Positions 1 through 64,000 of a DNA stretch of 64,000 bases are shown piece by piece. The first letter of the stretch is position 1. Each line of letters starts with the position of its first letter. Under the pieces are notes generated by a model. That model was not told where the DNA came from. It searched no databases and was given only the letters and a program-made list of their open reading frames with translations. The position numbers and the translations under genes were made by a program. This stretch comes from Amoebophrya sp. A120 (lineage: Eukaryota > Protista > Dinoflagellata): assembly GCA_905178155.1 (NCBI GenBank), contig CAJINV010000009.1:2891373-2955372 (forward strand), read 5' to 3'.

Positions 1-2128
1 TTCATTTGAAACGCCGGCTCGTATTCCAGCTCGAAGGTAAGGAAAAAGCGGACGGCAAAGCATTGCAAAGAAAAGGGCCCCCTTCCCAAATTGATGAATC
101 AACACGCATCTTCCTTCCGAAATTCTGCGAGGCGGATTTGTGGCCATAAATCTGCATTGCAAGAAGACAAATCCAGAGAGCAGTCCGCCGGCGTGTCAAT
201 ATACAACTGCAGACGAAGATTTGTAACGCTGTGAGGCCAACAGGCACAGGGCAGACCTCTGCCATAGCCGTGCTAAGTGCCTCCACAAAAAGATCCCTGC
301 CTAAGGCTTAGGTGGATCTGTGCGCAGGAGTCCTGCTCTCATCTCTACTGCAAGACAAACTCGATTTTCTCTTCCGCACGTATATGATCCCGCATCATAG
401 ATTTTGATTTCCATTCTGATATAATGGGGAGGGGGAACCTTTATTCTATATTGGGATAAAAAGACGGCAATCCCCACGTTGCCCAACAGGTAGGGTCGGC
501 TTTCGAAAATTTCTTGTTGCAGCATGGTTGATAGCGTATGCTTTGCAAAAGTATGGCATCGTACTCGTATACCTAAACCTATACATTTACATGCATTACA
601 AATTTCATGAGAATTAAAATCTGTAATGCGGATTTACCTTGAGAAGTACATTTGTAATGCATGATTGCAATTAGAATTACTACCCTACGTACGAGTACGA
701 TACTTTTGCATTGCATATAGGGCGGTCTCGGCCAACAAGTCAAAACCGGCCACCAGCGGGTATCAAATGCAAAAATGTCTGGGTCTGGAAACTTGTGATG
801 CAAGAAAGGGAGTAGTGAACTCACTCTAATGCGCTGCCAAGCATGACAAGTTTTTTCCGTGGTTCTGAGTTGCGTACCCCGCATGAGAAACTGAGTTTTT
901 GCATGACAGGGAGGAGGAGCTCCTCGCGGCCATGCAACACAGAGTTCAGAGTCACGCCAGACAAGCATGACAAATCTCGCAATCTCCCAGACCCAGACAT
1001 TTTTACATTTGATAGCGGGTCTGCGGTCACAACCTGGAAGAGGGAAGAGACGGTGCAGCAAATCAAAACCTGGTTGTAGTAGCCGTAGTATTTCTTCACT
1101 TGCTCGAAGCGGGTCAACGGCTTCTGGCCCGGCTTCTTGCTCTTCTTCTTCGTCTTCTTCGCGCCGTCACTTCGCCTCTTACGTGGGGACGATGAGGTCG
1201 AGGAGGACCTCGATCTTCCTGTATTTTTCGCGGCTTTTGTCGTTGATCCCGGCGGAGGTGATAAGTCCCCGCCGGCGTGGAGGTTTTCAGGTGGATCACC
1301 ACTACCACCATCCCCGGGTCCACCTCCGCGATCAGCGCTGGAAAACAGTATCCAAGAAAAAAACTGTGTTAGTGTAACTTTCTTTGGCTGACAGCATCAC
1401 AAATTTGCTCTACATGACACAGAAAACCTGTCATGCGGGGTTTGTAAGGGAAAACACGCATGAAATGAGGACTGCATGGCTGTCTGGCATGACAGGCGTA
1501 ACATAACTCTGTTGCATGTTCTGCATCACAGATTTACACCTACACAGTTTTTTTCTAGCATAAACAGCATACTGCCTCCATTGCTGTACTTTAACCGCAC
1601 CCAAGGTAGGGCCAACGCAAGACCGCCCGCCACGGTTTTAATAGTACCCTTCGCAGACGTCGCACCGGAGGACCCGCTGAGCTTCACGTGCAAGTCGGTG
1701 GCGCGGATTTTTATCTTTCTGGGCCGCCCGCCCGGTACTGCAGCCTCGATCGCACATCGCGCTCCTTCGGGAGTTGTTTGAGTTTTGGATCGCACCTCAG
1801 GCGGGGCGATGAGATCTCTAGTGGGACGCCGGGCCGACCACGACCACGACCACCTCGTCTCTCTCTCGCGTGGTAGTACGTCGTCGAAAAATAGCAGGCG
1901 CCTCTCCTGCTTTGACGGCAGCGCTACTGCAGTACTTCTGTAGTCCACGATACTGCCGTTGCATTTTTGTCGCGTTTCTTGCGAGAAAGATGTAGTTAAA
2001 AATCGTGGGAAGAAAGACGTACTGCATTGGCTCCTCCTCGTGGCTGTTCTCTCCGGCGCGGCCGGCAGTTCGAACTCTTGCAGTGGCGGCGGTAGCTCAA
2101 CACAGTGCCAGTAGTTGCGCATGATCAT
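1..2128 (-). CDS. Gene 1 (runs off left edge): hypothetical protein split by 4 introners
   Basis: Removing 1349-1562, 761-1014, 537-717 and 61-458 (each +5 nt) joins MIMRNYW...GSMLF/SSADRGG...VTADP/LVAGFDLLAETAL/STMLQQEIF...IAVF/AVRFFLTFELEYEPAFQM in frame. Hydrophobic stretches near the left edge; no family recognised. Confidence 0.75.
61..458. mobile_element. Introner family D (degenerate)
   Basis: Degenerate CCCCTCCCC/GGGGAGGGGG TIRs; TSD caaag/aaaag; frame restored. Confidence 0.7.
537..717. mobile_element. Introner family B
   Basis: TIR TATnnnnTGCAAAAGTAT; TSD tagcg/taggg. Confidence 0.8.
761..1014. mobile_element. Introner family A
   Basis: TIR TATCAAATGCAAAAATGTCTGGGTCTGG; TSD gcggg. 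Confidence 0.92.
1349..1562. mobile_element. Introner family C
   Basis: TIR TATCCAAGAAAAAAACTGTGT; TSD aacag. Confidence 0.92.
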
Positions 2129-3911: not shown

Positions 3912-4131
3912 TATCAAAGGAAACATGTAGCTGGGTCTGGAAACTTGTTCTACTGCTGAAGCTTGCGTCACAGAGTAGTGCCTTGTGTACGGCATAACAG
4001 TATCAAGGAATAGTTCTGCGCGGCTAGTACTTGCTCAAGAAAAGAAAAAGATTCATTAGTAAAAAACATGACAACGTATACTCAAACTTCGCATCACAAA
4101 TCCAGACCCAGATCGATATTTCCAATGCATA
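3912..4131. mobile_element. Introner family A (degenerate, outside mapped CDS)
   Basis: CTGGGTCTGGA...TCCAGACCCAG TIR cores; flanks cctag/cctcc. Confidence 0.6.
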
Positions 4132-4189
4132 CCTCCTGGCTTGATTCTACAAGATAAAAACAACCTTCGTCCCCGCGCTCCAGAGGAAC

Positions 4190-4513
4190 TATGCATTGCA
4201 AATGTGTCTGGGTGTGGAACAAGATTGCGAGATCTGTATACGCAATTTTTCCCAAGCTGCGCCAAGTTGTCTGGAATGCAGGGCTTGGCAGCCTAGGTTC
4301 ATGTTCATCTAGTACAGTCCTTTAGTATACTGAAATCATGCCTACTAGTCTGCATGCGAAATAATGAGTCCCCTTTCAGCTGCGTGGCCAGAAATGGGCA
4401 CCCTTATTTGCAGATGCAGGTCATGCAATATTACAAAGTTTTGTGTGACCCTCAACCCGCGCCATCACGATAAGTTTGCATTGTTCCAGACCCAAACATA
4501 TTTGCACTGGGTA
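4190..4513. mobile_element. Introner family A (degenerate, outside mapped CDS)
   Basis: TATGCATTGCAAATGTGTCTGGG...TTCCAGACCCAAACATATTTGCA; no clear TSD. Confidence 0.55.
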
Positions 4514-5109: not shown

Positions 5110-8100
5110 TTAATCTGATGTATCGCCAACGAGCTTGATGCTGTTCGCGGCGGCCGCTCTATCCGTCGGGTCCAGCCGTGCCACAGCCTGTATCGTAGGG
5201 AAAAATCCCTCCTCCCCATATCGAAAAGGTGCGTCTCAGAAAATTTGCCATGCAGATTTGTGGCGACAAATCGTCTCTGTCATGCAAGGACGCAACTCCA
5301 CAGGCTCCGCCGCATTCTGCAGGCGGTTTGTGATGCTGTTGGCCCTACAGACTAGACGTCTGCCATGCTCAGCGCCTAGCCCAAGACCTCCCTACTCAGA
5401 CTTATTGTAGGCCTGCAGTCCTGTACTGCAAGACAAATCTGATTTGTGTACGCAAATCCAGCATCAGAAATTTCGTTTTGATGTGGGGAGGGGGATTTTT
5501 CATTGCAATAGCCTGCTGCGTGCCTCGCGTCCATCTGCCCGATTCCGTATGCCGGAAAAAAACTATGTCAGTGCAAGCTTTTTAGGCTGATACTAGCATG
5601 AAAAATTTACTCTGCATGACAGAGGAAACCTGCAATGAGCGTGGCTACCTACTACATAAAAACACACATCTATGAAAGGAGGACTTCGTGGCTGTCTGGC
5701 ATGACAAGCGTAATCTATTTTGCATTTTCTGCATCACAGACTTACACTCACACAGTTTTTTTCTTGCATACTCCGGGTCCCTCTTCCAATCGTCGAGCTT
5801 CACGTGAAACCTCTCTTCTTCGGACAAGAGCTGCTTCTCTTTCTACCAATTGCAAAAATGTCTGGGTCTGGAAGAATTCATGTTTGTCATGCTTGTCTGG
5901 CACGACTCTTAAGTCTGTCATGCACGTTACCCAAGAGCTCCGCTTTTCTGTGATGCAGAAGCGCAGTTTGTCATGCAGAATAGGCAACACCGGGGAGCTC
6001 AGACACTCGTCATGCTGAGCCAGCATTTGTAGCCTCATCATGAGACGCCACCCAGCATCACAAGTTTGAGTTTCCAGACCCAGACATTTTTACATTTGAT
6101 ACTTTCAGACTCGGCCCCACTACACCAGCCGCCTGCTGAGGATAGTACTTGTCACCGCCGCCTGAGGGCCAGGCTGTAGCTTCGCCTTCCCCCACCTCCT
6201 GTCGAGTGGTCGGCGAAGATACGAAATCCATGGTGCCCGTCATCTTCACGCGCCGAAGTCGTGCCACAATCGACTCCGCGTCCACAACCCCACTCTCGTT
6301 CGTGTGGGAGTTCTTGCCGTGCTTATTCTGGGTCGTGGTACGCTATCGACGTTGCAAATCAATGTGTCTGGGTCTGGAAAGTTCTTGTGAGACCCATAGT
6401 AGTACATGAGTTGTGTGAGTAACATCAACAAACCGAATCCCCTAGTACGCAGAGACGCACGAGAAAACGTGTGGGTAGTGCGTATTAGTATTACTACTAG
6501 CCTCTTGACGCGGGCGTCCCGGACGCCCGCTGGGCTAGTAGATGTAAAAATAATTCTAAAGACGGGAATGCGTTTAGAAGGTTTGGCTTGGAGTCGAGTA
6601 GAATGCGGCTAGAAGGTTGAAAAGCATAACGCTGCCTGCCCCGAGGAAGATCGTTGCCGCGCCTGCGCTTGCCCTAGCGGCCTCGCCGCTTTAACGCCTT
6701 TTGCGGTCCGGCGTCCAGGACACCGGCCCGCCGTCAGCCCTTTAGCCGCGTTGCCGCGCCTGCGCTTGCCCTAGCGGCATCGCCGCTTTAACGCCTTTTG
6801 CGGTCCGGCGTCCAGGACGCCGGCCCGCCGTCAGCCCTTTAGCCGCACGCGGCAAGCAAAGCGAAGGGGGCCGGTTGCGAAGCTTATTCTGGGGCGGCTT
6901 CGGCGGCCGGCGCAAACAAAACCCCCGCCCCTTGATGGGGATGAGCCTCACACTTCCGGGGGCTTGTTCGCGCGGTTTTGCCTCGCGCCCCCCCGCCCAT
7001 GCCATGCACCAGAAGCCGAGAGGGAGAGGCAAAAGCGTGCCCGGCCGGAACGAAAGAGGTGGCAAAAAGTGACTGCCTGGAAGCTCTTGGCCATCGCTCT
7101 TGCCCGGCTGCCCGATTGGAAAGCGATGGGCAAAAGTGATGGCCAAGAGCTTCCAGGCAGTCACTTTTTGCCACCTCTTTCGTTCCGGCCGGGCAACACT
7201 TTTGCGCGCGCGCCCCCGAAAGTGGTGGCCGCGGAGGTCTTGGCCAACACTTTTGCCCGCGCGGGGGGACAGTGACTGATGGCCGAAAATGACGGCCAGG
7301 CAGGGAGCTCTTGGCCATCACTTTTGCCCGACCGGAAGCAAGGCGATGGCCAAAAGTGATGGCCCGGGCAAGGAGCTCTTGGCCACCACTTTTGCCCGCC
7401 CGGAGCGAAAATGATGGCCAAAGAGTGAAGGTCAATGGTTGTGTGGCCACGGAGCTCCTGGCCACCATTTTTGCCCGACCGGAAATGGATGAGCAGGGAG
7501 CTCTCGGCCATCACTTTTGCCCGACCGGAAAGCGATGGCCAGAAGTGAGGGCCGAGGACTTTTGCATGCCCGGGCGAAAAGCGGCGGCAACGGAACTACT
7601 GGCCATCACTTTTGCCCGACAGGAAAGCGCTGGGCAATAATTGCCCAGGACGGAGCCCTTGGCCACCACTTTTGCCCGCCCGGAAAGTGACGGGCAAAAG
7701 TGATGGCCAAGGAGCGGTCGCGATGGATCGTTTCTCTTTGCCCGGCCGAAAAGTGATGGCCAGGGGGCTTCTGGCCATCACTTTTACCCGACCAGAAAGC
7801 GATGGCAAAAAGTGATGGCCGCGGAGTTCTTGGCCATCGCTCTTGCCCGTCCGACCGGAAAGCGATGGCCAAACTCTCTTTTGCCCGAACGAAAATCGAT
7901 GGCCGCGGAGCTCTTGGCCATCACCTTTGCCCGGCCGCGAAGCGATGGCCACTTTGACGGCCAGGGAGCTCTTGGCCATCACCTGCGCTCGGCCGAAAGG
8001 CGACGCCCAGGGAGCTCTTCGCCATCACTTTTGCCAGCGCTTGAAAATAAAGGGCTTCGCTTCTCGAAGAAAACCTGCTTCAAGCTCGAGGCCCCGCGCT

Positions 8101-11100
8101 GTCGTCAGGATACGCTTCGCGACAGTATCCTGACGATAGCAGGGGGATTCGGACTCGACAAAATGGCTCTCCCATTTTTCCGGTCCGAGTCCCCCTGCTG
8201 TCGTCGGGATACTGTCGCGAAGGGCTCGGGGGTGAGAGTGGTGCGCGCATTTGGGCGGCAAGTTGTGAGAACCACTGCCGCGCCCGAGTCCCCCTGTTGT
8301 CGTCAGGATACTGTCGCGAAGCCTTTCGCGACAGTATCCTGACGACAACAGGGGGGGCTCGAGGTTGGAAATGGTTTTCACGCTTGGGCTGCAAGTTGTG
8401 GAAACCGCTCTCAGGTCCGAGCCCCCCTGTTGTCGTCCGGATGCTGTCGCGAAGGCTTTCGCGACAGCATCCCGACGGCAGCAGGGGGATTCGGACTTGA
8501 GGTCGGTTGTCACAATTTGCCCGCCCAAAGTGATAGCCAGGGAGCTCGTGGCCAGTACTTCAGCCCGAGCGACCCACCGGAAAGCGATGGTTGGCCAGCG
8601 GGCTCTTGGCGAGGACTTTTGCCCGTACGGAAGGCGATGGCCAGGGAGCTCTCGGCCATCACTTTTGCCCGGCCGGGAAGTGAAGGCTCAGGGGCCCCTG
8701 GCCACCACTTTACCCGGCCGGAAAATGGTGGCACCAGAGGAGCTCTTGCCCACCATTTTTGCCCGGCCGGAAAGTCAAAATAGTGACCAAGGGCCCGACC
8801 GGAAAGTGATGCATGGCCCAGGAACTCCTGCCCTTGGCCATCATTTTTGCCCGGCGGGCCGGGAAGTGATGGCCAAAATTGATGGCCAGGCGGGAGCCCT
8901 TAGCCATCATTTTTACCTGCTCGGAAAGTCATGGCCAAGGGGCCCTCGGCCATGACTTATCATGTCCGAGCCAGCGGAAAGTGGTGGCCGACGAGCTCTT
9001 GGCCATCTCTTTTGCCCGACCCACCGGAAGCAAAGCGATGGCCGCCAAAAGTAGTGGCCGAGGAGCTGCTGCTGGGTGGCCATCACCTTGCATGCTTGCC
9101 CGGGCGGAAGGCCATGGATGGCCAAGGAACTCCTGGCCGCCATTTTTGCCCGGAGAGACAGGAAAGAACGGCGGCTCGGCCGGAAAGCGATGGCCCGGGG
9201 GCTCCTGGCCCTCGCTCTTGCCCGGCGGGCCGGAAAGTGATGGTCCCCATACTGCCACGGGATCCGTGGCTTTGCTTTGTTTAAGGTGCTGGCATTCTTT
9301 CACATGCTCGCCAGGGCGTGCAGGATAACATTTTGCACGACGGTACGGGGCACAAATAACGGGAACGCGTTCAATCTGTTACACGAAGCTTCTAGACGAG
9401 ACCTTCTAAGCACATTCGTTTAGAATTATTTTTCTAAGTGCCTCCTATAGATTATAGCAAAGGGGGAGGCAAAGTTCGTTTCACTATTATTATAATTATT
9501 ATCGATTCGCATGAGAAGTTCGCATAAGAAGTCGCAAAGAGGGAGGGGTATTTTTCCCTGACATGAGATATTTCAACGGCATGATGCGAAGCGTTCAGCG
9601 GTGGCGTAAAGAAAAGAGACACTTTTTTTTTGCAATGGAATTCTTATGCATACACTCGAGCGTGCGAAACTGCCAGCGGCGCTGCCTTCGCGCCTGTGCA
9701 GGCCCTGTGGCGGAGTGCTGGACCCGTTCCGAAATGAAGGCGAAATGCCTCCCCATCCCCATATCAAAATGGACATCAATGACGCGCGACGCGTCTCACT
9801 TCGTTTTGCATGCAGTAGAGCGCTGCACGTAGACCCTATCACGCCTTTCTGATGCAGGAGTCTGCTGGTGCGGGCCCTTAGCATGTTGGTAGACGTCTGC
9901 CCTGTAGGCCTTACAGCATCACAAACCGCCCGGATAAGAACGCGGCGGAGGAGTCTCTCGACTTTTCGCGTTCTTGCAAGACAGACAGGATTTTTGTTTT
10001 TCACCACAAATCGAAATCTGCTGCAACTTTTACTTTTCAGAAGGATGCGTTCTTCATAGATGCATATGGGGAGGGGGGATTTTCACTTGCAATAACCCGG
10101 CCTATGAACTGCAAAAGTATCGTACTCGTATAAATGCATTACAAATTTCCTCAGCATGAGAAAGAAAATTTGTAATGCGGATTTGCCTTAAGAAAAAAAT
10201 TTGTAATGCATGATTGCAGTACGATACTTTTGCACAGGATACGCCCGTGGTGACGACGACATAGCCGCGTGGTGGGTGATGATGATCCTTGTCAACATGG
10301 ATGCGGTTGTCCTTGTTATGAAATGCATAAATGTCTGGGTCTGGAAAATTGTGATGCTAAAATGTGCATGATGAAAACACTTCCGAATGCAGTCCGGCAT
10401 GACAACTTCCCAAAACGCTTTCTCATTCTCGTAGGCAATCCGCATGAGAAGCTGCGTTTTTGCATGACAAAAGAGGCTGCGACTTTTGTTGGTTACGCAA
10501 TACAGATTTTCTAGGTATGGAAAGCTAGCATTACAAGTTCCAACCTTCCAGAGGACCCAGACATTTTTACAATCCATACTTGTAATTCTGCAGCAAGTGT
10601 TGCGTGCGCGGACTGGTCTTGGGCGAGTGTTGAGGCGCACCGCCGGCGCTCCTGCTCGACACCGCGCCCGGCGAAGACGGGGGTGTGGCGGCGTCGTGTA
10701 GGCGATTTCTCGGAGACAGAGACGCGGAACGGGAGCGGTCTACCCGAAAGGAGTCACTGACAGCCGCGTCGTCGCCCCACAGCTTGAATATCCTAGTAAA
10801 GCAACAACGTCCCCAACTTACTACCCACAGATGTCATGCAAGAGTCTGCATATGCCTACAAAGTTTCTCCTGCGCAGCCACAACATGACAGGCAATTTCT
10901 ATCGTATGCAGATAGTATCTGGACGAGGGAGTTTGTTGTCATGCTAGAATCAGGATCATATTCATAAGCTAGTCAATTTGTCATGCGGTTTTTCAACAGC
11001 TAAACAGCATTGCACTACGAGCGGAAACATGTCATGCTCGACAGCCAGAACTTGTGGGTTTTTTGTGTAGCAGAAGATTCTTCATCTTGACAGACTAAAG

Positions 11101-48487: not shown

Positions 48488-48591
48488 GTAGAAGAAATTC
48501 CTTCAATGAAATCCGGCATCAAGGAAGTCGGCAGTCGCGCTTATTAGTCCGGAAGGCTGCAAGTGGAGCGGTTTGGTCAAAAGAAACAGGG

Positions 48592-49351: not shown

Positions 49352-49735
49352 CTAATTTTCATCACCACCTGTTGCTGTTACTGTTGCTCTTTCGGAAGGG
49401 GGGATGTATCTCTTCCGGATGTGGTTGCCGGCCGGGAGGATGATGTCACCGGTCTTTTTATTGCGAAAGTGCTCCGCCGGCTTCCACTTCTTACTTTTTT
49501 CATCGTACACCCAACGCGCAAACTCAAGCTGCTCGTGCACCAGAAGATGCGCACGTAGAACATCCGGCTGGCACTCAAAAGTGATACCACAACGGACACA
49601 ACAGTAGCTATCCCCCCCGTTGTGCCGCACATGCACTTTTCTGTAGGCGGAAGCACTGCTGGAGGAAGAAGATCGGCATACTTCTCACAATACAACTCCC
49701 ACGGCGTCCGGTGCGCTATCACTGTGGCGTACGGG
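49352..49735 (-). pseudogene. Frameshifted fragment with a C2H2 zinc-finger-like motif
   Basis: CVRCGITFECQPDVLRAHLLVH in ORF 49352-49636; its apparent N-terminal part (TPWELYCEKYADLLPP) is in another frame; flanked by direct repeats. Confidence 0.4.
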
Positions 49736-49828
49736 TTGCGGCCATTTAAAGATGAACTACTACTGCCTAATTTTCATCACCACCTGTAGGTAGGCACAAA
49801 CGAGGGTAATTAGTGTTGACCTATCGCA

Positions 49829-50048
49829 TATGCAAAGAAAAAAGCGTTACTACAGTTACACACTCTGATGGAAGACAAGCAAGACAGACAACCTCTGTCA
49901 TGCAGGAAATGCTTGCCAGCCTTATTTCATTCCTGTTTTCCCGTATAGACATAGTCTGCGCATCACAGGTTTTCTTTGCTATGTCGAGCAACTTTGTGAT
50001 GCAGAAACTCCAACAAATGTGTAACTGTAACACTTTATTCGTGGGATA
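49829..50048. mobile_element. Introner family G, outside mapped CDS
   Basis: TSD tcgca. Confidence 0.85.
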
Positions 50049-51344: not shown

Positions 51345-51665
51345 TATTGAGAGGAAAAATCCCCCCTCCCCATATCGAAAAGGTATGTTTGCGAAAATTT
51401 GCGTTGCTGATTTGAGACCACAAATCGCATCTGTCTTGCAAGGAGGCAACTCCACAAGCTCCGCAGCATTGTGCAGGCGGTTTGTGATGCTGATGGGCCT
51501 ACAGAACGGACGTTCCTCATGCTAGACGCCTAGGCCAAAACCTATCTACTTAGGCTGAGTATGGGCCTGCATTTCTCTCCAGCAAGACAGATCCGATCTG
51601 TGTACGCAAATCCTGCATCAGAAACTTCGTTTTGATATGGGGAGGGGGGATTTTTCCTTTTGATA
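51345..51665. mobile_element. Introner family D, outside mapped CDS
   Basis: TSD agttc. Confidence 0.9.
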
Positions 51666-52297
51666 AGTTCGTCGTCTTGTTCTGCCTGATCGATATAATC
51701 GATGGAGATCATGACCTTCTCACTAGAAGTATTTGACCACTACAAGGTGGCCAAAAATTACCAAGACCAACAACTTCATCGCGCACGATAGCGATCATGT
51801 TGGCCCATTTTCATTTTCTAATTCTAAGCAAAATTTGATACAGCGCATAATGTCGCATAATAATTTCGCAAACAGGAAAGGCATTGTTGATCTCTATTGA
51901 TGGCTGCACTTCTGATAGAAGTCACAGCTTAGACTTAGTACGTGCTATGTATAACTCGGAGGCTCGTTTTTTACACGTTCGGCTGCAGAAGCGTTGTATC
52001 CACGCCTGATGTCTGAAACTGAATCTGCAACACCTTCCTCCACTGTTTGAGCCAAGAAGTGCAGCCAAACTTAAAAAGTAAGTACGTACTATCATTGCAA
52101 AAAGCTTGCAGGCAAAGAATAAGAAACATTGATTCAGCACATCATTCGACTGTATGCCCCTTCTTGCAGAATGAATGCACACCTGCGAAGATCCTGGGTG
52201 ACTAGTAGTTCAACGTCTATAGTCGATTCTGACTCATATTACGATAGCGCAAGATTGTATTCGTAAATAACATCGGAAATGGGTGCGCCAGCACCTT

Positions 52298-52555
52298 TAT
52301 CCAATGCAAATAGGTCTGGGTCTGGAAGGTTGTGGTGCTAAAATTGGCTATAGGCGCACAGTAGTAGTGCGCTGCTATGCATGACAAAATTTTGGGCTGC
52401 TATGGCAAACTGCGTTTCTGTATGACAGCAGCTGAGAGGAACTTTTCGTGCCCATGCATCTGCATCACAGAGTTTCCAGTCATGCTCATGCCAGACCTAC
52501 AACATGAGAAGCCTTACATTCTTCCAACTAGGCCCAGACATAATTGCGATGCGTA
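52298..52555. mobile_element. Introner family A, outside mapped CDS
   Basis: TSD acctt/gcctt. Confidence 0.8.
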
Positions 52556-53018: not shown

Positions 53019-56000
53019 TTATTCTCGAAGGATGCAGCTTCGCAAAATGTTAAGTATTATCAAGTCGATTCCGAGAATGCGGGTCGTGCCGTCGAGACCG
53101 AGAATGCAGGCCAGCGCCAGGTCGTTGTTTGTATGACCACATGAGCTGCATTTTTTTAAAACCGGTTTAACCGGCTCGCTTTTCCGGAGGAACAATGCCC
53201 CCCCGACGAACATGAAGCAGGGGGCAGCGGGGGAGTACCAGATGGGCACCTTGATCCCCTCGTTACCGGAAACGAACATAGAAATCGCGTACCGTTTCCG
53301 CGGCAAGGAGTCCTCCGTTAGCGGGTCAACATAGCCGGGCGGGGGCTGCTGCTCGTTGCCGACGTGCTGGGGTCGTTGTGCTACTTGTTCCCCGCCTCCA
53401 AAAGCACCACCGGCACCCCCCGGTTGCTGCATCGGTTCCTCGAGCTCCTTAAATTCCAGCACACCTTGGCAGTAGCTCGTACTGTGACAAGAATTATCCA
53501 CGCTGCTGCTCGTCCCAGTGACGCAAGCTTCGCCCTTCAGCGTGCAGGCCAACGCTTCCTGCTGTTGCCGGTCTTCCACGGTTTGGTCCACCTGCAGCTC
53601 CTTCCCCCGCTTGAGGCCAATCACCCGGTCCCCGAATATCCGGAAGCCAACGTATCCTGTTGAAAAAACTCCCCGCCCCAGAGTCAAGTTGGGAAGTGCG
53701 CAACACAAATCCAGAAGCTGAGGGAGCCACGCATGCCAAGTTTATTTCATCTGTAGTGTAGTGCACGTTAACAATGATAGGCAGCATCACAAAGCAATCA
53801 GCTTATTTACTGTTGACAGCATCACAGATTCCGAAACTGAAAAAAGTTTGCCTCTCATGGAGATCCATCATCATCATCATCATCATCAGTGAATCGGCTC
53901 TGCCGACCGGGCAACCCAACGCGAACGCCTAGCATACAAATCTTCCTATAGATGCAATTCTGCATGACACCTCTGGGCGGGACGTGGGGACGTTTTTCCA
54001 TATGATACAACCGTGAGTTTCTTCATTTTTTCCGGGAGATCTTCCTCTACATCTTCTTCGTCGAATTGGAGCTGCACTTTTTCCCAAATCCCCGTTAGAT
54101 CGTAAATCGAAAAAAGCCGGTTTATCAGCAGCCGCTGCATATTCACATCCGCATCCTGACTTACTCCGAACAGTTCCGCTTCGGAGAAAAACCGCAATGA
54201 CGGGGTTTTTTGCCGGTAATAGGAAATCTGCGCAGGCAACTCCGGAGTAGGGTGGGGCTGGGGAGGGGATGCAGGCGATTGCACGGCTACGGCGCCTTGG
54301 CTTTCCTCCCCGCCCCTCCTGTTACTTCGCCGCCGGCCTCTGCCCCGGTCGTCTTGCGGGTTGTTGGAAGCCCTCGCCTGCTCCACCCGAGGTGGTTGCG
54401 GCTGGGTGAAATAGTACATCTTCGGTATTCGGCGGAGCATGACTGGAATCGTCCTGTCTTGCATCGTCAGAATCTCCTGCCCATCCTATTACAATGAAAA
54501 ATGCCCCCACTCCCCAACTTGGGTGGAGCATTTGTATTGCAAACCTTTCCAAGTGAGACACTCGCCCTCTTGCGTCTATCAGCATCACAGATCTACTTCA
54601 ATTGTGAATAGTCAACATTTGTATTGCAAAAGATCCCAGCAAGAGCGGCGCCTGTCATGCAAGCGGTGCGATACACGCCTAGACCCTTCATCAGAGAGGT
54701 AATTCACACTCCTTTCATGCATGACAAAAAGTTTTGATTTGGAAACTTCGCATAAAAAATTTTTGCAACTGTGGGGGTCGTGGGGGCATTTTTCATTGTA
54801 ATACATCCTCTGTCGGCACCGATTTGAAATTGTCGCCAAAGCTGAAAACCTCCATGACCGCCTTCGGCGTTTGCATCAGCGGGAGCTGCATCTGCTTCGT
54901 TAACGGGACTGGCGCCCGGTGGGACAGCGCGCCGGGAGAACCACCCTGGTCGCGGCCTCCATGGGGACCACTAGTACTAGAACCGCCGCTTTCTTCGGAA
55001 TTATTCCCAAGTGCAGCAGCAGCAGCAGCACCAGCGCCTGAAGATGAAGATGCTGCCCCACGATCTCTACTTGCACGACGGCTTTTTCCTATCCTGAGTA
55101 AAAACGTACCCACACCAGAGTCAGGATGGGGATTTGCAACACAAACCTAGGAGTTTTGTGTGTCACGCATGACAAGTTTCAGTCCGTAAGGTAGTGCAAG
55201 TTAGCAAGGAAAGCCGCATCACAAATCGACCTTCGGATCCTGTTTACAGCATTACAAGTTCCCAAAGACGATTGAAAATGCCTGTCATGGGGTTGCGCAT
55301 CACAAATGTTCCTGTCATGGCAAATCTGCATGACAACTCTGGGGTGGGTACGTTTTTACTCAGGATATTTCCTTTCTTCTCGTCTTCCTTCGCTTTCGTT
55401 TTCAAACCGTTCCGGTCCAAGTTTTTACTCTTGGACAGGGTGACGGCGAAGGGAGACGGTATCAAACAAAAAAGTGTTAACGTTAAGACGGTTTATCAAT
55501 ATGCATGTCAGATTTTGCCCAGCATGCATGCTAAGCATGACAAATTTGGGCACGTTTTGTGATGCATTATCGCATCACAAATTCCGTTAACGTTAACACT
55601 TTTTCCCGTGATAAAAGGAGCCGTCACGTGATGATCCTGCATGTGGGTGAAGTCGAACATTTTGGTCTTCAGAGCTTTCTCTGCCAGCGCCTGCTTATGC
55701 CCGACGGAGGCCTGTGCGGACGACGACCCTGACGATGTTCCCGCAAGTGTGTTCGAGGACGGTTGGGAGGTAAGCACTGCTCCTCCTCCAGCCTCGCCGA
55801 CTACCAAACTGGGCATCGTCAAGGCGTGGCCAATTTTGTTCGGTTCGATCTTCAGAGCGTTTCGATCAAAAACCAGCTCCGCGTTGTTTAAAAGTTCGTT
55901 GTTATTCCCGTGAAGTACATCGCGCTCCACCGTCTGTGCCGTCTCGCCGAGTACAGAGCATCCGTGCGTCGCATTGTGAGGAAACATCCCACCTCCCTGT

Positions 56001-59000
56001 ATCAAAACGAAGCTTCTGACGCTGGATTTCCCGTACACAAATCAGAGCTGTCTTGCAGTACAGGATTGGAGGCATATAATGCCGTGCCTGAGTACAGAGC
56101 CTCTAACGTGGACGCTTAGCGTCACAAATGTATATGCTGTAGCCCAAGCAGCATCACAAACCGTTCGCATAATGCGGCGGAGACTGTAGAGTTGCCTTCT
56201 TACAAGACAAATGGAGCTGTGATTTAATCAGCAACGCAAATTTTCGGAGACATACCTTTTCAATATGGGGAGGGGGGATTTTTCCTTTCAATACGTCGCG
56301 AGCCTTTCTCTGCGGACCCCGAACGCGGTGTTGGCCATCCACATAGCGTAGCGGTGCTGCAGCTTGTCCAGCCATTTCAGCAGCTTTTTCTTCCCGCTCA
56401 GCGTATCATCGTCAAACCCGGTGGGCAAATTCGGATAGTTTTGGTTGATAATTCGGTAGGTCAGGTCGCCATGAAGCGAAACCTCCCCGCCAAAAATTTC
56501 CAGAACCGGGGGATCCATATCCTGTGCAAAAGTATCGCACTCGTAGTAATCGCAAGCATGCATTACAAATCTCCTTTCCAAGGTAAAACAGCACGACAAA
56601 TTTCATTTCTCATGCTGAGCAAATTTGTCATGCGATTCATACTTACTAGTTAGTACGATACTTTTGCATTGCATAATCCAGATAGTTCGGCAGCTCTCGG
56701 TAGACCGCGGCCGGTTCTTGATGAAAATGTTGTCCTGGTGCCGAAGAAGAGGAGGACGCAGGTAAAGAAGAGCCTGCAGCTCCCCGTGCAGGTCCCGCCG
56801 CCTGACTACCTTGCGCGGCTTGCCCGCCTGTTTGTGCTTGTGCCATCCTAGCCGGTGAATTATCCTCCTCGCTGGAGAGGCTGAAGAAAGAACTTGCGGT
56901 CCACTTCTTTCCGTTTTTTTCTGCATACTGCGCCTCCAATTCGCGCAGCAGTTGCTTGCGTTCCTCTTTCGTCATGGGAATCCCACAGAAATAAAACTGT
57001 GTTAGTGTAGGCGTCTTCTTGGGGTGACAGCATGACAAATCCACACTGCATAACAGAGAAAGCCTGTCATGCACATCTAGCACGCGATGTGGAAAACCAA
57101 AACACATATGAATAAAACTTCATAGCTGGCTAGCATGACAAGCGTAACTGTGTTGCAGGCTTTGCATCACAGAGTTACACTATACACAGCCTTTTTCTTG
57201 CATAATTGGGTCGGAGGAATCGTTTGAAGAGCTGTCCTCGTCGGACTGGTCGCTATTTTCGTCCCCTGTTTCCTCCAGATCCTTCTTCTTCAAGAACACC
57301 GGCACCCGTTCCCACACCCCCGCGAACCAGAGCTGCTGTGCGGTCACTGGGAACAGGGAGTCCAGGTCGTCGATCACCTGATAGGTCGGTTCCTCCACAG
57401 ATTGCAGGACGGACGCCTCCCGCAAAACAGCCTGCATTACCTCCCCGGGGTCGAGATTCATGGTGCGCTGCTGTTGCTGCGCCGCCGCGGGGGTTCCGGA
57501 AATGGGGAACAGCACGTCGCTAATGTCCTTGGTCGACGCGATCCGCATCACCTTTGCGTACTGTTCCACTCTGCCTGGCCGGAAAATCTTATGCATTGCA
57601 ATTGTGTCTGGGATCTTGTGATGCCAGTCTGCGAGTGGTGGGCGCACTGCAATTCGCAGCCACGCATGACAACATTTTGCGCCGTTATGTGTTTCGCTTT
57701 TGGCATGGCAAACTGCATTTTTGCATGACAGACAGGCAAGCGCAAGAAGCTCTTATTTTGCCTCTCATCCATTACAGATTTGACTTTGAGAGCCATGTGA
57801 GACAAGCATGACAAACTTGCGCTCTCCCAGACCCAGACATATTTGCAGTGGATAAATCTTGTGCGCGATCGAGTCGTGGTTTTCCTGGCCGTTGTTGAGC
57901 CGCTCCAGCATCGAGTAAAACGAGTCTTGCAGCTCTGCAAAGACGTGCTCCGGGCGGGTTAAGATCATGTGCTCGCGCCGGATGTCGGATTTTCGTCGTA
58001 GCTGCAACCGCTCGTTGTCCGGTCCGAGCAAATTGTTCCGCGAATTTACGCGGGCGGCTCTGTCACCGTTGTTATTCGCCTGCGGATCATTATTTCGGCG
58101 GAAGTTCGCCACCTGGTTCTCGACCGCAACCAGGGGCTGGTAGCAGTCGTTTTCTAAAACGAGAAAGCTGGCGGTACTGATGCAAGATTTATCCGTCATG
58201 GTGGGCTGCAGCAGAGATAACTGCGGCAACCCGTTGTGCAGCTTTTTCTTTTTCAAATTGCTCATTGACTCCACCGCCTGTAGCTCCCGCATTTGCCTCG
58301 GCGTCACTTTCGCGAACTTTTTCCGTTTGTCGTTGCCCCGGAATTCTTCGTAGTCTTCGCATTTCTTCGGCTATCCAAGAAAAAAAATGTGTAAGTGTAA
58401 CTTCGTAGGAAGAACAGCATCACAAATTCGTTTTGCAGTGCAGGGAAAACCTGCCATGCCCAGCTGGTACGTTAAAAAACGTATGAAAGTTGCCTATGAC
58501 GCACATCCAGCATTTTTCCAAGCGTATACAGTTTTGCATTTCCAGCATCACAGACTTACACTTACACAGTTTTTTTCTTGCGTATCGGAATTTTCAGGTA
58601 CTTGATCGCCTCCCCGGGGTTATCCCGTGTAAAAACGTCCTCGCCCCATAGCTGTCATGCAATTCTGCATGCCAAAAAAGTTTCTCATGCGGAGACCTAT
58701 GAGACGCCTTTTGTATTCGTGTTCTGGAATTTGTGATGCTATAATCAGCACGCTAGGCGAGATCTGTGATGCTTCTGAACTAGCTGAGCAGGATTACACT
58801 ATAAGGACAAATTTGTCATGCGAAGAAGCCAAAGCTGCATGATTTGTCTAGCAGATTTCCCATCTTGACTCTGGTGTGGGGACATTTTTACTCAGGATAG
58901 GGGTGAAGCTGCAGAATCGCCGACCAGATATTCATGGGCGCCTTATCAAATGCAAATATGTTTGGGTCTGGAAGATTGCCAGGTTTGTCATGCATATTTT

Positions 59001-62000
59001 GCATGACCAATGACGCCTGTAATGCATGCCCTAGCATCCCGGATTTTTAGAAGGCTTCCCGATGCTTATTCCGCATGAGAAACGCCTTCCCCTTGTAGCA
59101 CAAACTGGACTCTTTTTGCTAGTCATGCAATACAGATTTTTTTGGAATCCAAAGACAGCATCACAACTTACCACCTTCCACACCCAGACATTTTTGCACT
59201 TGATACACCTCGTCCGCATCAAATTCGTCTGGGATGAGGTCCTCTGGCTTGACAATGGTACTCTGTTCCAGCCCGCTGGCAGAGCAACCTCCTTTCGACG
59301 AGCCGCTCTGCTTATCAAATGCAAAAATGTCTGGGTCTGGAAGATTTTTAGATTTGTCATGCATATTTTCCATGATCCATGTCGTCTGGAATGCAGGGCC
59401 TAGCATGACAGACTCTGCCAGATCCCTATCATTCCTATCCTGCATGAGAAACTGCCTCGCGATTAGGTCAAAAGTGGACAGCTTTTGGCAATCACGCAAC
59501 ACAGATTCTTACATGATTCAGATTTAGCATGACAAGTTGCTTTGTTTCAGACCCAGACATTTTTGCATTTGATACTGCTGCAGCTGCTCCTGGTACTGGC
59601 AGTTTTCCGAGACTGCTCCTAGTGGATGGGTCGTCGCCGTCTCATATCCTATGGAAAAACGCCCCCACGCTAGGGTTAAGATGGGGATCTCGCAACACAA
59701 GTCACGACGTTTTTGGAGTCACGCATGACAAGCTCCTCTCTGTGGTGTATGGCAATGGAATGCGGGTTAAGTAGCAAGAACAGGCGCATTACAAATCCCG
59801 ATGCTCATCCTGTTTAAAGCATCACAAATACCAAAACACGACCGAAAATGTACATGTATATGTAATGCTTATGCTTGGTATGGGGATGCGCATGACAAGT
59901 TTTTCTTTTTATTTTCTGTTATTGCAAATCTACATGACAACTATCTGGTGGGGACGGAGTTTTTACACAGGATATCTCACTGCCTTCAGACATCCAAAAA
60001 TGGGGGTCGCGCAGCAGCAATCTATTCGCGGAGCTCCCGTGCGACGGGCGGGAGGAGGATCTATTGGACCCATGCGAAAGACGGTTGGTGCCGGGATTGC
60101 TACAGAAGGAGCTTGCACCGCCGGTGGTGGCAAAGAGCGCACTCATCGCGGAATTCGTGCGGGGAATGGTGGCCGTCTATTCTGAGTAAAAACGTCCACA
60201 CCCCAGAGCTGTCATGCAAATCTGCGTGCCAAAAAAGTTTCTCATGCGGAGCCCCATGGGAAGGTTTTATTTTCTAGGGACGTTTTGGAGTTTGTGATGC
60301 TACAATCAGCATGAAATGCTAGAACTGTGATGCTGCTAATCTAGCTAAACAGGATCACGCAATGAGGGCAAGCTTGTCATGGGAAACAACCAAAGCTGGT
60401 TGATTTGTCTAGCAGATTGGCCATCTTGACTCTGGTGTGGGGACGTTTTTGCTCAGGATACCGTCTCTGCTGATGAACTCATTGTCATCGGGAAACAAAG
60501 CCTGCTGCCCTTCCTGCTGCCCGCTGGTGTCACTGCTCGCATACATAGCATAGGAATCTCGCTCGGACATGTCGCCCGACGCGGCTTTCGCCACGTGGTT
60601 TTGGTACTGGAGGTCCGCCTGCGCTTGTTGCACATGGTTCAGCAAGTTGCGCTCCGCGACCTTTTGTGCTTTCACATTCAGCCTTCCCGGGTCGCCGTTG
60701 TATTCGTGTATCTGTGGGTATCCTGAGTAAAAACGTCCCCGCCCCAGAGTTGTCATCCAGATTTGCAGTCACAGGAAGATTTGTAATGTGCATCCCCATG
60801 AGAGGCATTTCCAATCCATCGTGTTTTGTGCTTTGTAATGCTGTAAACAGGATGACTAGATGGATTTGTGTTGCGGCTGTACTTGCAGCTAAACTGCCCT
60901 ACAATACAGAGAGGAACCTGCCATGCTTGACTCCCAAAACTTCTCGATTTGTGTTGCGATTTCCCCTTGACTCTGGGGCGTTTTATGTACTGGAAAAGAC
61001 CAAAATTAAAGCACGGAGGCCAAAATTAAAGCACTTGACTCTGGGGTGGGAGCGTTTTTGATCAGGATAGTGGGTCGTCGTTCTTGTTCCCCTGATGCTC
61101 GAGCAACTGCGAGTTGGCGCACATCTCCTGGAGTTCCTCCTGCGACAGGTGTTCGGCGCGGGTATCAAGTGCAAATATGTATGGGTCTGAAAATTTGTGA
61201 TGCTAAAATGTGCATGATGAAAACACTTCCTCATGCAGAAAAGCAGGACAAGTCTGCAAAACGCGTTATCAACATACAAACTCCGCATGAGAAACTGCGT
61301 TTTTGTATGACATGAGAGGCTGCCACTTTTGTTGGTCATGCAATACAGATTTCACAGGAATGCAAGACCAGCATTACCAGTTCCAACTTTCCAGACCCAG
61401 ACATATTTGCATTTGATAGCGAGCTTGTTCCAATAACGTATCCGGGTCCTCGGAGAGGTAAACACCAGCGCGCCGTTGCTGGCCGTCGTAGCGATGAGGA
61501 TGATGATCCACCTTCGCAGTGGAACTACTAGCACTAGCTCGTGTGCTCGTCGTCTTTTCGTCTAGCTTCTGGATGTCGCGTGCTGCCCGGGTGTTGGTCA
61601 CCTGCTGTTGCTTCCTCAAAAGGGACATCGAGGACACGGTGCTGTCCCGCGGACTGTCATGCGCACTGTAGGTCCCGACGTCGACCAAAACCTCCTGTTT
61701 TGCGGTGGGCGGCCTGATGTGCAAATCGGCAAAAGCACGCATAATCTGGTCCATCTCCGGCTCGGAAAGCTGCCTTCTACGGTCTCTCGCTTGCGATTCG
61801 GTCGTTAACTGTCGCTCCGTATCAAGTGCAATTATGTCTGGGTGTGCACGAAGCCTGCATGTTTGTCATGCTTGTCTGGCATGACTCTGAAATCTGTCAT
61901 GCACGTTACCCAAGAGCCTCATTTTTCTGCCATGCAGAAGCGCAGTTTGTCACGCAGAATAGGCAACACCTAGAAGCTCAGAAACTTGTCATGCTGAGCC

Positions 62001-64000
62001 AGCACTTGTGGCCTCCTCATGATACGCCACCCAGCATCACAAGTTTATTCCAGATCCAGACATATTTGCAATGCATACTCCGGGCGGACAAACTCCCCGA
62101 TGTACTCGTCCATGTGCATTTCGTATCCAACAAAAAAACGTTGTTAGTGTAAACTTGTGATGCGCAACATGCAAATTGATTGCGCCTGTTATGCTGTGTC
62201 TGCATAGTAGGGTTCATTCAAGGGCGTTTTCGCGTACTAACTGCGCATGACAGGTTTTTGCTGTCATGCGAGAGATATTTGTCATGCTAATCCTCCAAGA
62301 AAGTTACATCTACAATCTTTTTTTCGTGGATATTTCGGGTAGCATCTCCAGCTCTCTGGAGCTATCCACAATAAGTCTCCCGTACAACACGTACAATTTC
62401 AATGAGTATACAAATGCGGTCTCTGCATGACAAAACTTGGCTCCGATCCTAGTTTAGCATGACAAGGGTTGCACTCCAAATTGGTGAAATTTATTGTGAT
62501 GCATCTTGTACATGTAGTACGGGTGGAAATTTGTATTGCATAGGAGCCGCGGTGCTGCAGCACATTTTGCTCCGTTAAGGGCATTTGCTTGTGTGTACCA
62601 TCTCGATCCCCCCCTGCCCCAGGAGGCGATACGAAAACGTGGTCCCCGGGAGTTGTAGAAGACGCCGCCGTGTACGGTCCGCTTTGCGCTAGATGCTCTA
62701 CATGATTCTGTTGTTTCTCGAGGAGTTGAGGACCACCAGAGGAACTGCCAGCGCTGCTACCCGCTCTGGCTGCGAGCTGCAGCAGATTGCTCACACCCAC
62801 TCCAGCCCTGGTTGTGCTCGAGCTCAACCTTGGGCTCGCCGAGGTGCTACCGCTCACTTGCCGACTGTACTCGACTTGCTTCTGCAGCTCTTCCAATCTT
62901 TGCTGCCCAAATTCTGTCGTCGAGACGTTCATCAGGTCTGTGTTGCGATGAACAATCCAAGTCGGATCAACCTGCTGCACGAGCACACACGGGTCTTCCT
63001 GTCCCGGCTGGCGGTGGTGGTTCATCCCCGACGAGCCAGAAGGTCCGCCGCACCCCGCCGCGTTCCTGGAAAAGCGGGCTTTATCCCCGTGCGGTCCACC
63101 AGCACCAGCGCCGGTTGTCTCCGCCGGGCTGTGCGCAGAGCCAGACGCGGAACTCGATGCCACCGAGCTAGACTGGATCTGGAAATTCGCACAATCGAGC
63201 CCGTTCATGTTCATGCTCATGGTGTCGAAAACGCCTGCCTGCGGCTATCAACTGTAAAAGTGTCCGGGTCTGGAACATTCTGACGCTTGTCATGCACGTT
63301 TTGCATGAGCCCGGATGTCTGTGATGCATGCCCTAGCATCACAGATTTTTTCAGAGCTTCTTGATGCCTATGCCGAGTGACAAATGCCCTCTCCGCGTAG
63401 CAAAAGTTACACTCCTTTTGGTACTCATGCAGTACAGATTTTTCTGGAATCCAAATGCAGCATGACAAGTTCGCACTCTTCCAGACCCAGACATTTTTAC
63501 ATTTGATAGCGGCCCACCCTGCGCAAGTAGCTGCCCGTTCCAAAGCCAGTCCTGGTTCGGTCTGCTCGTCCCCTGGCCGCCGGCGCCCCCACTCTGGCAG
63601 CTCATGCCCCTCGACGGCCCGCTAGTACTCATTTTTGCACTGACCGCCTCGGCGGAAATGAGAGAAGAGCTCACCTGCGAGAGCGTGCAGACACTCCCAG
63701 GGTCGCGTGTCGGGGCTTGGTCCGTTATGCATTGCAAATATGTCTGGGTCTGGAAGAGTCGGGGTTTGCCATGCACATTTTGCATGACCAGTGTTGTCTC
63801 TGATGCTGATGCTAGCATCACAGATTTTTTGAGAGCTTCTTGATGCTGATTACGCATGAGAAATGCCCTCTCCGCGTGCCAAAAACTGCACTCCTCTTGC
63901 TGTTCATGCAACACAGATGTTTTCAGAATCCGCAGACAACATTACAAGTTCCACTCTTCCAGACCCCGACATATTTGCACCTGTTATCCGTCGTAGTCGT
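53019..64000 (-). CDS. Gene 3 (starts beyond right edge): large hypothetical protein split by 21 introners
   Basis: Junction phases are consistent after element+5 nt removal, except for a 1-nt discrepancy near 60161-60177. Last exon ...TVGFRIFGDRVIG...RSCILRE* ends at 53019. No family recognised. Confidence 0.75.
53653..54007. mobile_element. Introner family E with internal (CAT)n expansion
   Basis: TSD caacg/caacc. Confidence 0.85.
54487..54803. mobile_element. Introner family J
   Basis: TIR TATTACAATGAAAAATGCCCCCAC; TSD catcc. Confidence 0.92.
55090..55367. mobile_element. Introner family E
   Basis: TSD tttcc. Confidence 0.92.
55460..55613. mobile_element. Introner family I
   Basis: TIR TATCA....AAAAAGTGTTAACGTTAA; TSD gacgg/aaagg. 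Confidence 0.85.
55972..56293. mobile_element. Introner family D
   Basis: Left end CAT variant; TSD cgtcg. Confidence 0.87.
56518..56675. mobile_element. Introner family B
   Basis: TSD atcca. Confidence 0.9.
56979..57204. mobile_element. Introner family C
   Basis: TSD atggg/attgg. Confidence 0.82.
57590..57854. mobile_element. Introner family A
   Basis: TSD aatct. Confidence 0.88.
58372..58584. mobile_element. Introner family C
   Basis: TSD tcggc/tcgga. Confidence 0.88.
58621..58899. mobile_element. Introner family E
   Basis: TSD ggggt. Confidence 0.92.
58944..59205. mobile_element. Introner family A
   Basis: TSD cgcct/cacct. Confidence 0.9.
59313..59574. mobile_element. Introner family A
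   Basis: TSD ctgct. Confidence 0.92.
59645..59974. mobile_element. Introner family E
   Basis: TSD tctca. Confidence 0.88.
60178..60460. mobile_element. Introner family E
   Basis: TSD ccgtc. Confidence 0.9.
60719..61069. mobile_element. Introner family E with internal duplication near right end
   Basis: TSD gtggg; CTTGACTCTGGGG and CCAAAATTAAAGCAC each occur twice. Confidence 0.87.
61163..61418. mobile_element. Introner family A
   Basis: TSD gcggg/gcgag. Confidence 0.9.
61820..62077. mobile_element. Introner family A
   Basis: TSD ctccg. Confidence 0.88.
62124..62332. mobile_element. Introner family C (diverged)
   Basis: TSD tttcg. Confidence 0.85.
62363..62542. mobile_element. Introner family L
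   Basis: TATCCACAATAAG..CCCGTAC / GTACGGG..TTTGTATTGCATA; TSD ggagc. Confidence 0.83.
63246..63508. mobile_element. Introner family A
   Basis: TSD gcggc. Confidence 0.92.
63726..63986. mobile_element. Introner family A
   Basis: TSD tccgt. Confidence 0.88.

Follow-up and report, generated by a model that had tools for sequence, protein, structure and literature searches.

A stretch of 64,000 nucleotides of the dinoflagellate Amoebophrya sp. A120 (contig CAJINV010000009.1, positions 2,891,373 to 2,955,372 of the forward strand; hereafter the window, in which positions are counted from 1) carries 105 mostly short elements bounded by terminal inverted repeats (TIRs), nearly all of them inside three genes, and removal of each element together with 5 nt, one copy of its flanking direct repeat, keeps the reading frame at 98 of 99 genic junctions. 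These elements are non-autonomous TIR DNA transposons that act as introns without GT-AG. Judged by their sequence, they are the introners described in this strain by Farhat et al. 2021, and the class is thus already known; added to it here are a single junction rule, an explanation of motif variety, a replicated polarity and a shared internal motif. Anatomy, 5-bp duplication, occurrence in both orientations, frame restoration, lack of GT-AG and a one-sided terminal TA were all observed in this analysis.

The whole window was searched for inverted ends of the form TAT…ATA accompanied by a direct repeat of 5 bp. The automatic search returned 88 such candidates against 9–17 in five shuffled sequences, or 51 against 0–1 under strict limits, and a general scan for TIRs and target-site duplications (TSDs) made without the TAT rule recovered the same elements. 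Four automatic calls (27314-27502, 49459-49680, 51694-52221 and 58091-58930) were dropped as spurious. A relaxed search with symmetric rules contributed 12 further elements in which one end is altered, and another 16, decayed or very long, were positioned manually from what is left of their ends, guided by the frame; these 16 are counted among the 99 genic elements, a caveat on all frame counts. The curated catalogue comprises 104 outer elements and one nested element, with a median length of 258 bp, and occupies 35,646 of the 64,000 bases. A preliminary description of the stretch, made from its letters alone, had reported about 106 TIR elements with 5-bp direct repeats, mostly with TAT-N7-AAAA…TTTT-N7-ATA ends, and this was borne out: TAT-N7-AAA is present at one end at least in 93 of the 104 outer elements, and at both ends in 64. 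Ninety-nine elements lie within coding frames and five outside. The direct repeat measures exactly 5 bp and is perfect in 64 of the 99 genic elements, none of which has a perfect repeat of 4, 6, 7, 8 or 9 bp; its sequence is arbitrary, both in the window and in a second assembly described below. Clustering produced seven multi-member families and 25 singletons, with separate copies within families up to 92% identical and families lying both ways round (17:11, 10:3, 8:5, 7:5 and 5:5). TIRs, a TSD of fixed length, lack of coding capacity and insertion in either orientation are the traits of MITEs (miniature transposable elements with inverted repeats).

The three host genes, A, B and C, are all on the minus strand. 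Gene B (5110-47489; ATG at 47489, stop at 5110-5112) becomes an open reading frame of 4,747 aa after removal of 74 elements with 5 nt each, a GT-AG intron being needed at none of the 74 introns. Its product is of low complexity and coiled-coil-like, and no Pfam family scored above cut-off in any of the 34 exons scanned. Gene A (53022-63999), which starts beyond the window, has an open frame over 21 elements with one break, and gene C (3-2134) is a 355-codon open frame over four elements that runs off the window edge. Over the window as a whole, no Pfam family was above cut-off in 51 exons scanned and there were no Rfam matches. Frame restoration had previously been put at 97 of 98 junctions, with 73 elements in one frame; the recount raises these figures to 98 of 99 and 74 and leaves a single failure, at the element 60178-60460 (minus strand). 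There removal of 5 nt beyond the element fails and the coding score switches frame at the junction, which needs an offset of 0 mod 3, or else a nearby 1-nt indel or an assembly error. When flanking exons alone were considered, a surplus (k) of 2 mod 3 was forced at 26 junctions, allowed at 72 and excluded at one.

That "exactly 5 nt" accompany each element, as stated earlier, does not follow from the frame alone, which cannot separate a surplus of 5 from a surplus of 2, because gene B stays open with removal of 2 nt as well (4,821 aa). Removal of element + 2 (N-element-N), an arrangement prompted by the NT-AN motifs in Table S4 of Farhat et al., was rejected at five junctions. Three of these are in gene A, where the segment 53184-55411 equals P0001, a protein of 421 aa annotated under the label Amoebophrya sp. 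A120; its annotation was derived from transcript alignments, and it is an exact substring of the spliced gene across three junctions for k=5 only. The other two are in locus L031 of the second assembly, a gene for a fatty-acid-oxidation enzyme that, when +5 is applied at both junctions, shows no gap against five homologues from bacteria; the alignment score was best at k=5 (1159, against 1112–1136 for +2 or +8), five homologues spanning the junctions and 11 further matches not doing so. P0001 (three junctions) and the bacterial homologues (two junctions) thus support +5 rather than +2. A glycine of L031 kept in five of five homologues derives from the upstream duplication copy, and therefore that cut is not at the start of this copy.

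Although the frame of gene B spans 4,747 aa, protein searches brought up no more than short fragments for the gene B exon that was searched completely; for gene A they brought up one partial model. An NCBI protein named Amoebophrya sp. A120 matches exon 54015-54485 at 100% identity. Exons 57861-58370 and 45631-46299 matched no annotated protein among longer proteins, only two within-exon protein fragments matched the gene B exon 40796-41899, and searches with two gene B exons returned no full-length model. Comparison of P0001 with the Atlas yielded no usable lead.

Splice-site consensus is lacking at these junctions. Because the duplication leaves six equivalent registers for each cut, GT-AG was sought in any of them, and it was available at only 4 of 99 window junctions and 13 of 277 in the second assembly, which agrees with the earlier remark that GT/AG is not fixed; G[TCA]-AG was available at 13 of the 99. 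The GT or GC donor with AG acceptor and the branch-point consensus of major (U2) spliceosomal introns are missing. An A stands three bases from the 3' end in 373 of 378 elements, with G in the other five; that this is a branch A is suggestive only.

How a sliding register would appear in motif counts was simulated with 234 elements having an exact duplication: the junction was moved within the duplication and the register nearest GT-AG or CT-AC was kept, aligners being assumed to favour registers of these two kinds. The window elements alone gave a similar motif list. Seven of the nine commonest A120 motifs of Table S4 (GT-AC, CT-AG, AT-AG, GT-CG, GT-AA, CT-AC, AT-AT, AT-AC and TT-AG; PMC7789003) fell among the top ten in this simulation. 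Simulated shares of 28% GT, 16% AT, 27% AG and 25% AC are near those of family 16 of Gozashti et al. 2025, the largest row among 22 of 58 (n=547; donors GT 147 and AT 101, ca. 27 and 18%; acceptors AG 166 and AC 106, 30 and 19%; PMC12130899). One element + 5 rule may explain most of the published variety of splice motifs.

Sites with mismatched duplications had been proposed as a means to place the exact cut, a use that they did not serve. No register creates a stop in the window, and an AT drift in the mismatches (23 vs 12) was not significant. Non-synonymous duplication mismatches occur at position 1 in 45158-45322, position 2 in 46301-46487, position 3 in 10103-10241, position 4 in 12324-12602 and 58944-59205, position 5 in 44736-44891, 12065-12220 and 14274-14741, and positions 4 and 5 in 45443-45625. 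An excess of synonymous mismatches at positions 2-3 in the window (12 of 19 at third codon positions) was dropped when the loci of the second assembly gave 8 of 18; the third-position mismatch excess in those loci, 30 of 51, is compatible with a fixed or a variable cut. Insertion phase was uneven in loci L001-L149 (123, 75 and 64 among 262 oriented elements; 37, 36 and 25 in the window), perhaps because a weak preference for palindromic targets acts together with codon structure.

The preliminary description took the junction to be set by geometry relative to the paired TIRs, without fixed sequence. The two ends are not equivalent in this respect. In transcript orientation, TA was found at the 5' end of 99 of 99 genic elements, whereas the 3' end has it in 85 of 99 and has lost it in 14 (p=1.2e-4), and among the 86 elements whose duplication matches at 4 of 5 positions or more the non-TA ends numbered 0 (5') versus 12 (3'). 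The rest of the TIR decays alike at both ends (positions 4-25; 344 versus 380 mismatches, 5' versus 3'). Before frame-guided curation the skew was already 0 versus 6 non-TA ends among 84 elements.

A replicate set was obtained by scanning metagenome contigs with the TIR pattern, which gave 149 loci (545 kb) from another assembly. They carry the same families, 80 of the 105 window elements matching copies there over 80% of their length; no exon homologous to the window was found among them, and therefore no empty site was observable. The detector, which ignores the terminal 3 nt, gave 348 elements in its first version (with three false calls in 269 kb of shuffled sequence) and then 375. With a match of at least 4/5 required, the duplication was exact over 5 bp in 277 of the 348, and a 6-bp duplication was found in none. 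Strand was called with a coding model blind to the element. A filter requiring at least 20/27 at both ends, a duplication of at least 4/5 and TIRs in register, chosen after the list had been inspected, took out 45 of the 375 elements, and 51 were left without a strand call (one with a non-TA end). In the 279 that remained, TA was kept at 278 upstream ends versus 265 downstream ends, that is 1 versus 14 losses (p=0.001). All 56 settings tried gave the same direction, 51 of them at p<0.05, and the pooled loss of TA amounts to 1 (5') versus 28 (3') of 378 elements. TIR positions 3-16 were alike at both ends in the second assembly.

Polarity is not built into the element, because families occur in both orientations, nor does mutation bias explain it, because the same sense-strand changes occur next to the 5' TA (T to C at position 3 in 8 of 378). 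The signal is replicated but modest in size, and it argues against pure hairpin geometry and against excision of DNA. No report of a one-sided TA was located in the literature listings and text sections consulted; Fig. 3 and Figs S21-S25 of PMC7789003, which lay outside them, could bear on it. The sole non-TA upstream end is that of L032:5233-5477, an element whose first six bases repeat exon bases beyond the downstream repeat, making an 11-nt direct repeat; this may reflect conversion or an assembly effect.

On folding, the ends were predicted to be paired in 81 of 95 elements and almost entirely unpaired in eight. The part of the earlier claim that invoked an RNA hairpin found no backing in the TIRs, which show no RNA-pairing signature: mismatches have no G-U bias on the transcript (G-U vs A-C, 66:72 in the window and 220:193 in the second assembly) and none of 15 position-3 changes was compensated, tests of low power if only overall stability matters. 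Matching of the duplication copies is not required either, as 26310-27546 keeps 1/5 with intact TIRs. Inside the elements, the motif GCAT[GCT]A[CG]A is present in 364 of 375, equally on both strands, and is absent from 14.6 kb of gene B exons; because it is equal on both strands, it probably has a DNA-level role such as transposase binding.

The reading that we favour, and to which we give about an even chance, is that the element and one copy of its duplication are removed at the RNA level by a modified spliceosome that reads the upstream UA (N|UA donor). Elements would be inserted by an integrase-related DDE transposase that binds the short internal motif common to all families, TA…TA transposons of this kind generating the 5-bp target duplication on insertion. 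The element plus exactly one duplication copy would then leave the pre-mRNA, and insertions would be nearly neutral and pile up, because removal gives back the pre-insertion sequence. Serving as donor signal, the upstream UA would in the simplest case occupy positions +2/+3 of an N-UA donor (a GUA donor with its first base free); the reader would be a modified spliceosome keeping U2/U5/U6, with no detected U1. The 3' cut would do without AG; its place would follow from a fixed distance to the opposite TIR end, which pairing or a bound protein would bring near. A modified spliceosome is preferred on three grounds. UA matches positions +2/+3 of a GUA donor in the register that leaves four duplicated bases upstream, the arrangement described by Farhat et al. 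(PMC7789003); excision is exact; and most spliceosomal parts are present, A120 retaining 83 of 89 spliceosomal proteins together with U2, U4, U5 and U6, U1 not having been detected (PMC7789003).

A number of observations weigh against removal by such a spliceosome, or against the polarity on which it leans. The UA could equally be a nuclease site, and TIR pairing in 81 of 95 elements suits a hairpin-triggered route just as well. N|UA is one of several possible cut registers inside the duplication; L031 removes just one of these, a cut where the upstream copy begins, and does so at a single junction. G before TA is at background level (35/99 in the window; 93/277 in the second assembly), AG is not enriched at any register in either set, and CTAAC, the branch-point consensus, is found in 21 elements versus 19 on the other strand (375 elements). 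The junction of 60178-60460 departs from +5 (1 of 99), and L032:5233-5477 is one clear exception to the 5' TA. Unfiltered counts in the second assembly, 8 versus 13 and then 5 versus 13, were not significant; these calls included both-ends-wrong and one-base-off cases. The strands of the 15 informative loci were assigned by the coding model alone, with Pfam confirming strand in none of 83 flanking frames. Finally, no autonomous element turned up, whether in the window or among the related loci (545 kb).

The same junctions could be produced by spliceosome-independent excision, triggered by TIR pairing and carried out by a nuclease or RNA catalysis with an RtcB-type ligase, as in the SOS splicing of animals or the non-conventional introns of Euglena but made precise; the upstream UA would here be the first cleavage determinant. 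This is the main rival, which we consider rather unlikely. It would accommodate the predicted pairing, the absence of a GT, AG or branch consensus and of detected U1 (PMC7789003), and the obedience to the rule of repeat-filled elements of 1.2-5.4 kb. SOS splicing needs pairing of inverted terminal repeats (ITRs) and rarely uses GU-AG (PMC12779559), and Euglena introns have TIRs, are released in circular form and depend on a short motif placed at a fixed spacing (PMC12501133, PMC11282704). However, SOS splicing is imprecise and leaves indels (PMC12779559), whereas here 98 of 99 junctions are in frame, and both the missing G-U excess and the eight elements with unpaired ends speak against dependence on a hairpin. 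If pairing alone mattered, any paired TIR would set both cuts with neither sequence read-out nor polarity; the arbitrary duplication and the likeness of TIR positions 3-16 at both ends suit such pure geometry, yet the loss of TA at 1 versus 28 of 378 ends tracks the direction of transcription, and we regard pure geometry as improbable.

Programmed or somatic excision of DNA, which would clear the elements before transcription, had been kept as an alternative in the preliminary description and is now disfavoured to the point of being very hard to credit. Precise excision would give a 5-bp duplication with one copy lost, but RNA-seq delimited 55,290 and 66,565 introns relative to genomes in which they are retained (PMC7789003), the two assemblies considered here keep the elements in place, and a transposase treats both ends alike, whereas the constraint follows the transcript. 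There is, lastly, a slight chance that the system is simply as published, the one-sided TA being a by-product of how the elements were curated or of mutation with a strand bias. Curation of the window did use the frame, the filter applied to the second set was post hoc, and the informative ends number only 29; against this, the search rules were symmetric, the skew was 0 versus 6 before curation, its direction held at all 56 settings, and errors in strand calls would dilute a skew, not create it.

Comparison with described systems places the elements closest to the A120 introners. In that strain 65% of introns are non-canonical and 29,850 are introners, of ca. 240-260 nt, in repeated families, with inverted repeats starting TAT-N7-AAA and direct repeats of 3-5 nt, 5-bp repeats being named in the legend of Fig. 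S19 (PMC7789003). The window elements share the strain, the TAT-N7-AAA ends, a repeat within that range (5 bp), dispersed families and the lack of GT-AG, and the identity of an exon to a protein labelled Amoebophrya sp. A120 supports the assignment, as the preliminary description had held; their absence from mRNA has indirect support at three junctions, via the transcript-based annotation of P0001. Farhat et al. report variable splice motifs and variable repeat positions, whereas the window fits one rule, element + 5, and the one-sided TA and shared internal motif found here are not mentioned in the portion of their text examined (PMC7789003). Gozashti et al. 2025 identify many A120 families as TIR DNA transposons of 150-350 bp, with tens of copies per gene as in the window; their automated calls differ in giving TSD lengths of 2-5 and splice-site mechanisms of "co-opt/carry" type (PMC12130899). 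Other members of the genus, Amoebophrya ex Karlodinium and AT5, use GT-AG, so the non-GT-AG system is confined to part of it. A25 has elements with TTA ends.

Likenesses extend further afield. In SOS splicing, too, DNA transposons leave mRNA at or near their ITRs without GU-AG, but the animal process is imprecise, leaves indels and needs AKAP17A, CAAP1 and RTCB (PMC12779559), whereas removal in the window is polarised and exact, one fixed offset keeping frame at 98 of 99 junctions (evidence at the level of frame, not reads). The supplement of the A120 study, as far as it was consulted, does not mention RTCB (PMC7789003). Non-conventional introns of Euglena share a MITE-like origin, TIRs, TSD-like junction repeats, a motif at a fixed distance from the cut and coexistence with GT-AG introns, and are marked by the signature N3CDG…CHG N5-6|R, by pairing shown to matter and by circular products (PMC12501133, PMC11282704); the window elements differ in their TA…TA ends and one-sided constraint. 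In Fritillaria, TIR/TSD transposon-derived introns likewise dominate the genome and escape GT-AG, with AG-AC and AG-AT preferred and an altered U2 spliceosome credited (PMC11282704, PMC13326754); more generally, tunicates handle non-GT/AG introns with an altered spliceosome. Unlike those of Fritillaria, the window elements need no fixed 3' dinucleotide.

Farhat et al. argue against mobilisation by a transposase (PMC7789003), and the preliminary description took it to be undescribed. A lead had in fact been reported: introner family 38 of A120 is an ORF-bearing TIR introner with integrase-like homology (PMC12130899); no such ORF was seen in the window elements. The long ORF-bearing elements with these TIRs that were to be sought occur neither in the window nor in the 545 kb of related loci; large inserts considered as autonomous elements held only repeat-derived frames, and the TIR pattern had no match in viral contigs. 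The longest other element, L025:632-1465 (834 bp), belongs to the largest family; its duplication is exact, and its 137-aa frame has no match in Pfam. TA..TA termini and TIRs are shared with IS3EU/GingerRoot elements, which have an integrase-related transposase (PMC10045372); an integrase-related DDE transposase is suggested for the introners because TA..TA ends mark that group. The usual TSD there is 6 bp (PMC10045372), versus strictly 5 bp here, with a 6-bp TSD in 0 of 99 window elements and 0 of 348 in the second assembly.

The outer elements, each with a 5-bp repeat, exact or decayed, are distributed as follows. Gene C holds 61-458, 537-717, 761-1014 and 1349-1562. Gene B holds 5191-5510, 5548-5770, 5844-6101, 6344-9652, 9727-10094, 10103-10241, 10317-10578, 10789-11125, 11200-11680, 11740-11887, 12065-12220, 12324-12602, 12720-12935, 13347-13495, 13567-13875, 13969-14172, 14274-14741, 14940-15202, 15278-15530, 15613-21043, 21239-21489, 21806-22069, 22281-22625, 22753-23171, 23363-23628, 23693-23860, 23920-24176, 24409-24670, 24738-24947, 25068-25325, 25431-25699, 25738-26015, 26310-27546, 27603-27858, 28018-28177, 28212-28370, 28433-28674, 28730-28994, 29265-29460, 29765-30026, 30124-30445, 30508-30698, 31005-31138, 31466-31767, 32096-32489, 32755-32972, 33413-33603, 33700-33921, 34207-34355, 34569-34765, 36176-36496, 37010-37300, 37335-37556, 37634-37918, 37987-38249, 38454-38715, 38774-39027, 39410-39730, 39816-39968, 40176-40431, 40505-40789, 41901-42165, 42399-42733, 42776-43058, 43156-43367, 43440-43755, 43812-44063, 44390-44578, 44736-44891, 44934-45140, 45158-45322, 45443-45625, 46301-46487 and 46960-47145. 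Five (48251-48487, 48592-48906, 49829-50048, 51345-51665 and 52298-52555) lie outside the three coding frames, in untranslated or intergenic sequence. Gene A holds 53653-54007, 54487-54803, 55090-55367, 55460-55613, 55972-56293, 56518-56675, 56979-57204, 57590-57854, 58372-58584, 58621-58899, 58944-59205, 59313-59574, 59645-59974, 60178-60460, 60719-61069, 61163-61418, 61820-62077, 62124-62332, 62363-62542, 63246-63508 and 63726-63986.

Some of these, all on the minus strand, depart from the common form. The younger, nested element 11456-11673 is lodged in the older element 11200-11680, 7 nt in from the transcript-5' end of the latter, an intron within an intron; taking out the outer element + 5 agrees with the frame, whether this happens at once or the inner element leaves first. 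Three elements are long: 15613-21043 (5,431 bp) has an exact 5-bp duplication, a filling of GC-rich simple and dispersed repeats, and frames without recognisable coding character; 6344-9652 (3,309 bp) is repeat-filled with a duplication of 3/5; and 26310-27546, a 1,237-bp member of the largest family, combines a tandem-repeat filling and intact TIRs with a duplication of only 1/5. Their kilobase-sized, GC-rich non-coding fillings (15660-20850, 6400-9600 and 26520-27500) consist of tandem units of 11, 13, 68, 92 and 97 bp and palindromic dispersed repeats, and could possibly be other mobile or satellite DNA. Element 30508-30698 is strongly decayed, and its boundaries, fitted to the frame, are uncertain. 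Left uncatalogued were 3912-4131 and 4190-4513, which lie between genes B and C, belong to the largest family and are decayed, with a poor duplication or none; between genes A and B, an AT-rich stretch of about 60 bases is present in two copies (49309-49368 and 49717-49787). An in-frame exonic GCATA-CATA-GCATA at 60539-60552 resembles a 5-bp duplication around four bases and is a possible excision footprint.

Since 2021 it has been a standing question by what means more than 60% of the introns of Amoebophrya are removed without GT-AG. If one rule and an upstream UA hold true, the question of mechanism shrinks to a few direct tests. The element + 5 rule would permit automatic annotation, and the internal motif, with the TA..TA/5-bp signature, offers a handle on the missing transposase. 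More broadly, and with a little less than even confidence, we propose that A120 has a second exact splicing code in which any TA…TA transposon would leave with one target copy, only the upstream UA is read and the 3' cut is measured from the far TIR, with no G at +1, AG or branch consensus, the machine being either a spliceosome that lacks U1 and has dispensed with the two terminal Gs, or else SOS-type splicing in a precise form. If this is true, some 30,000 exonic insertions in this genome would be scarless.

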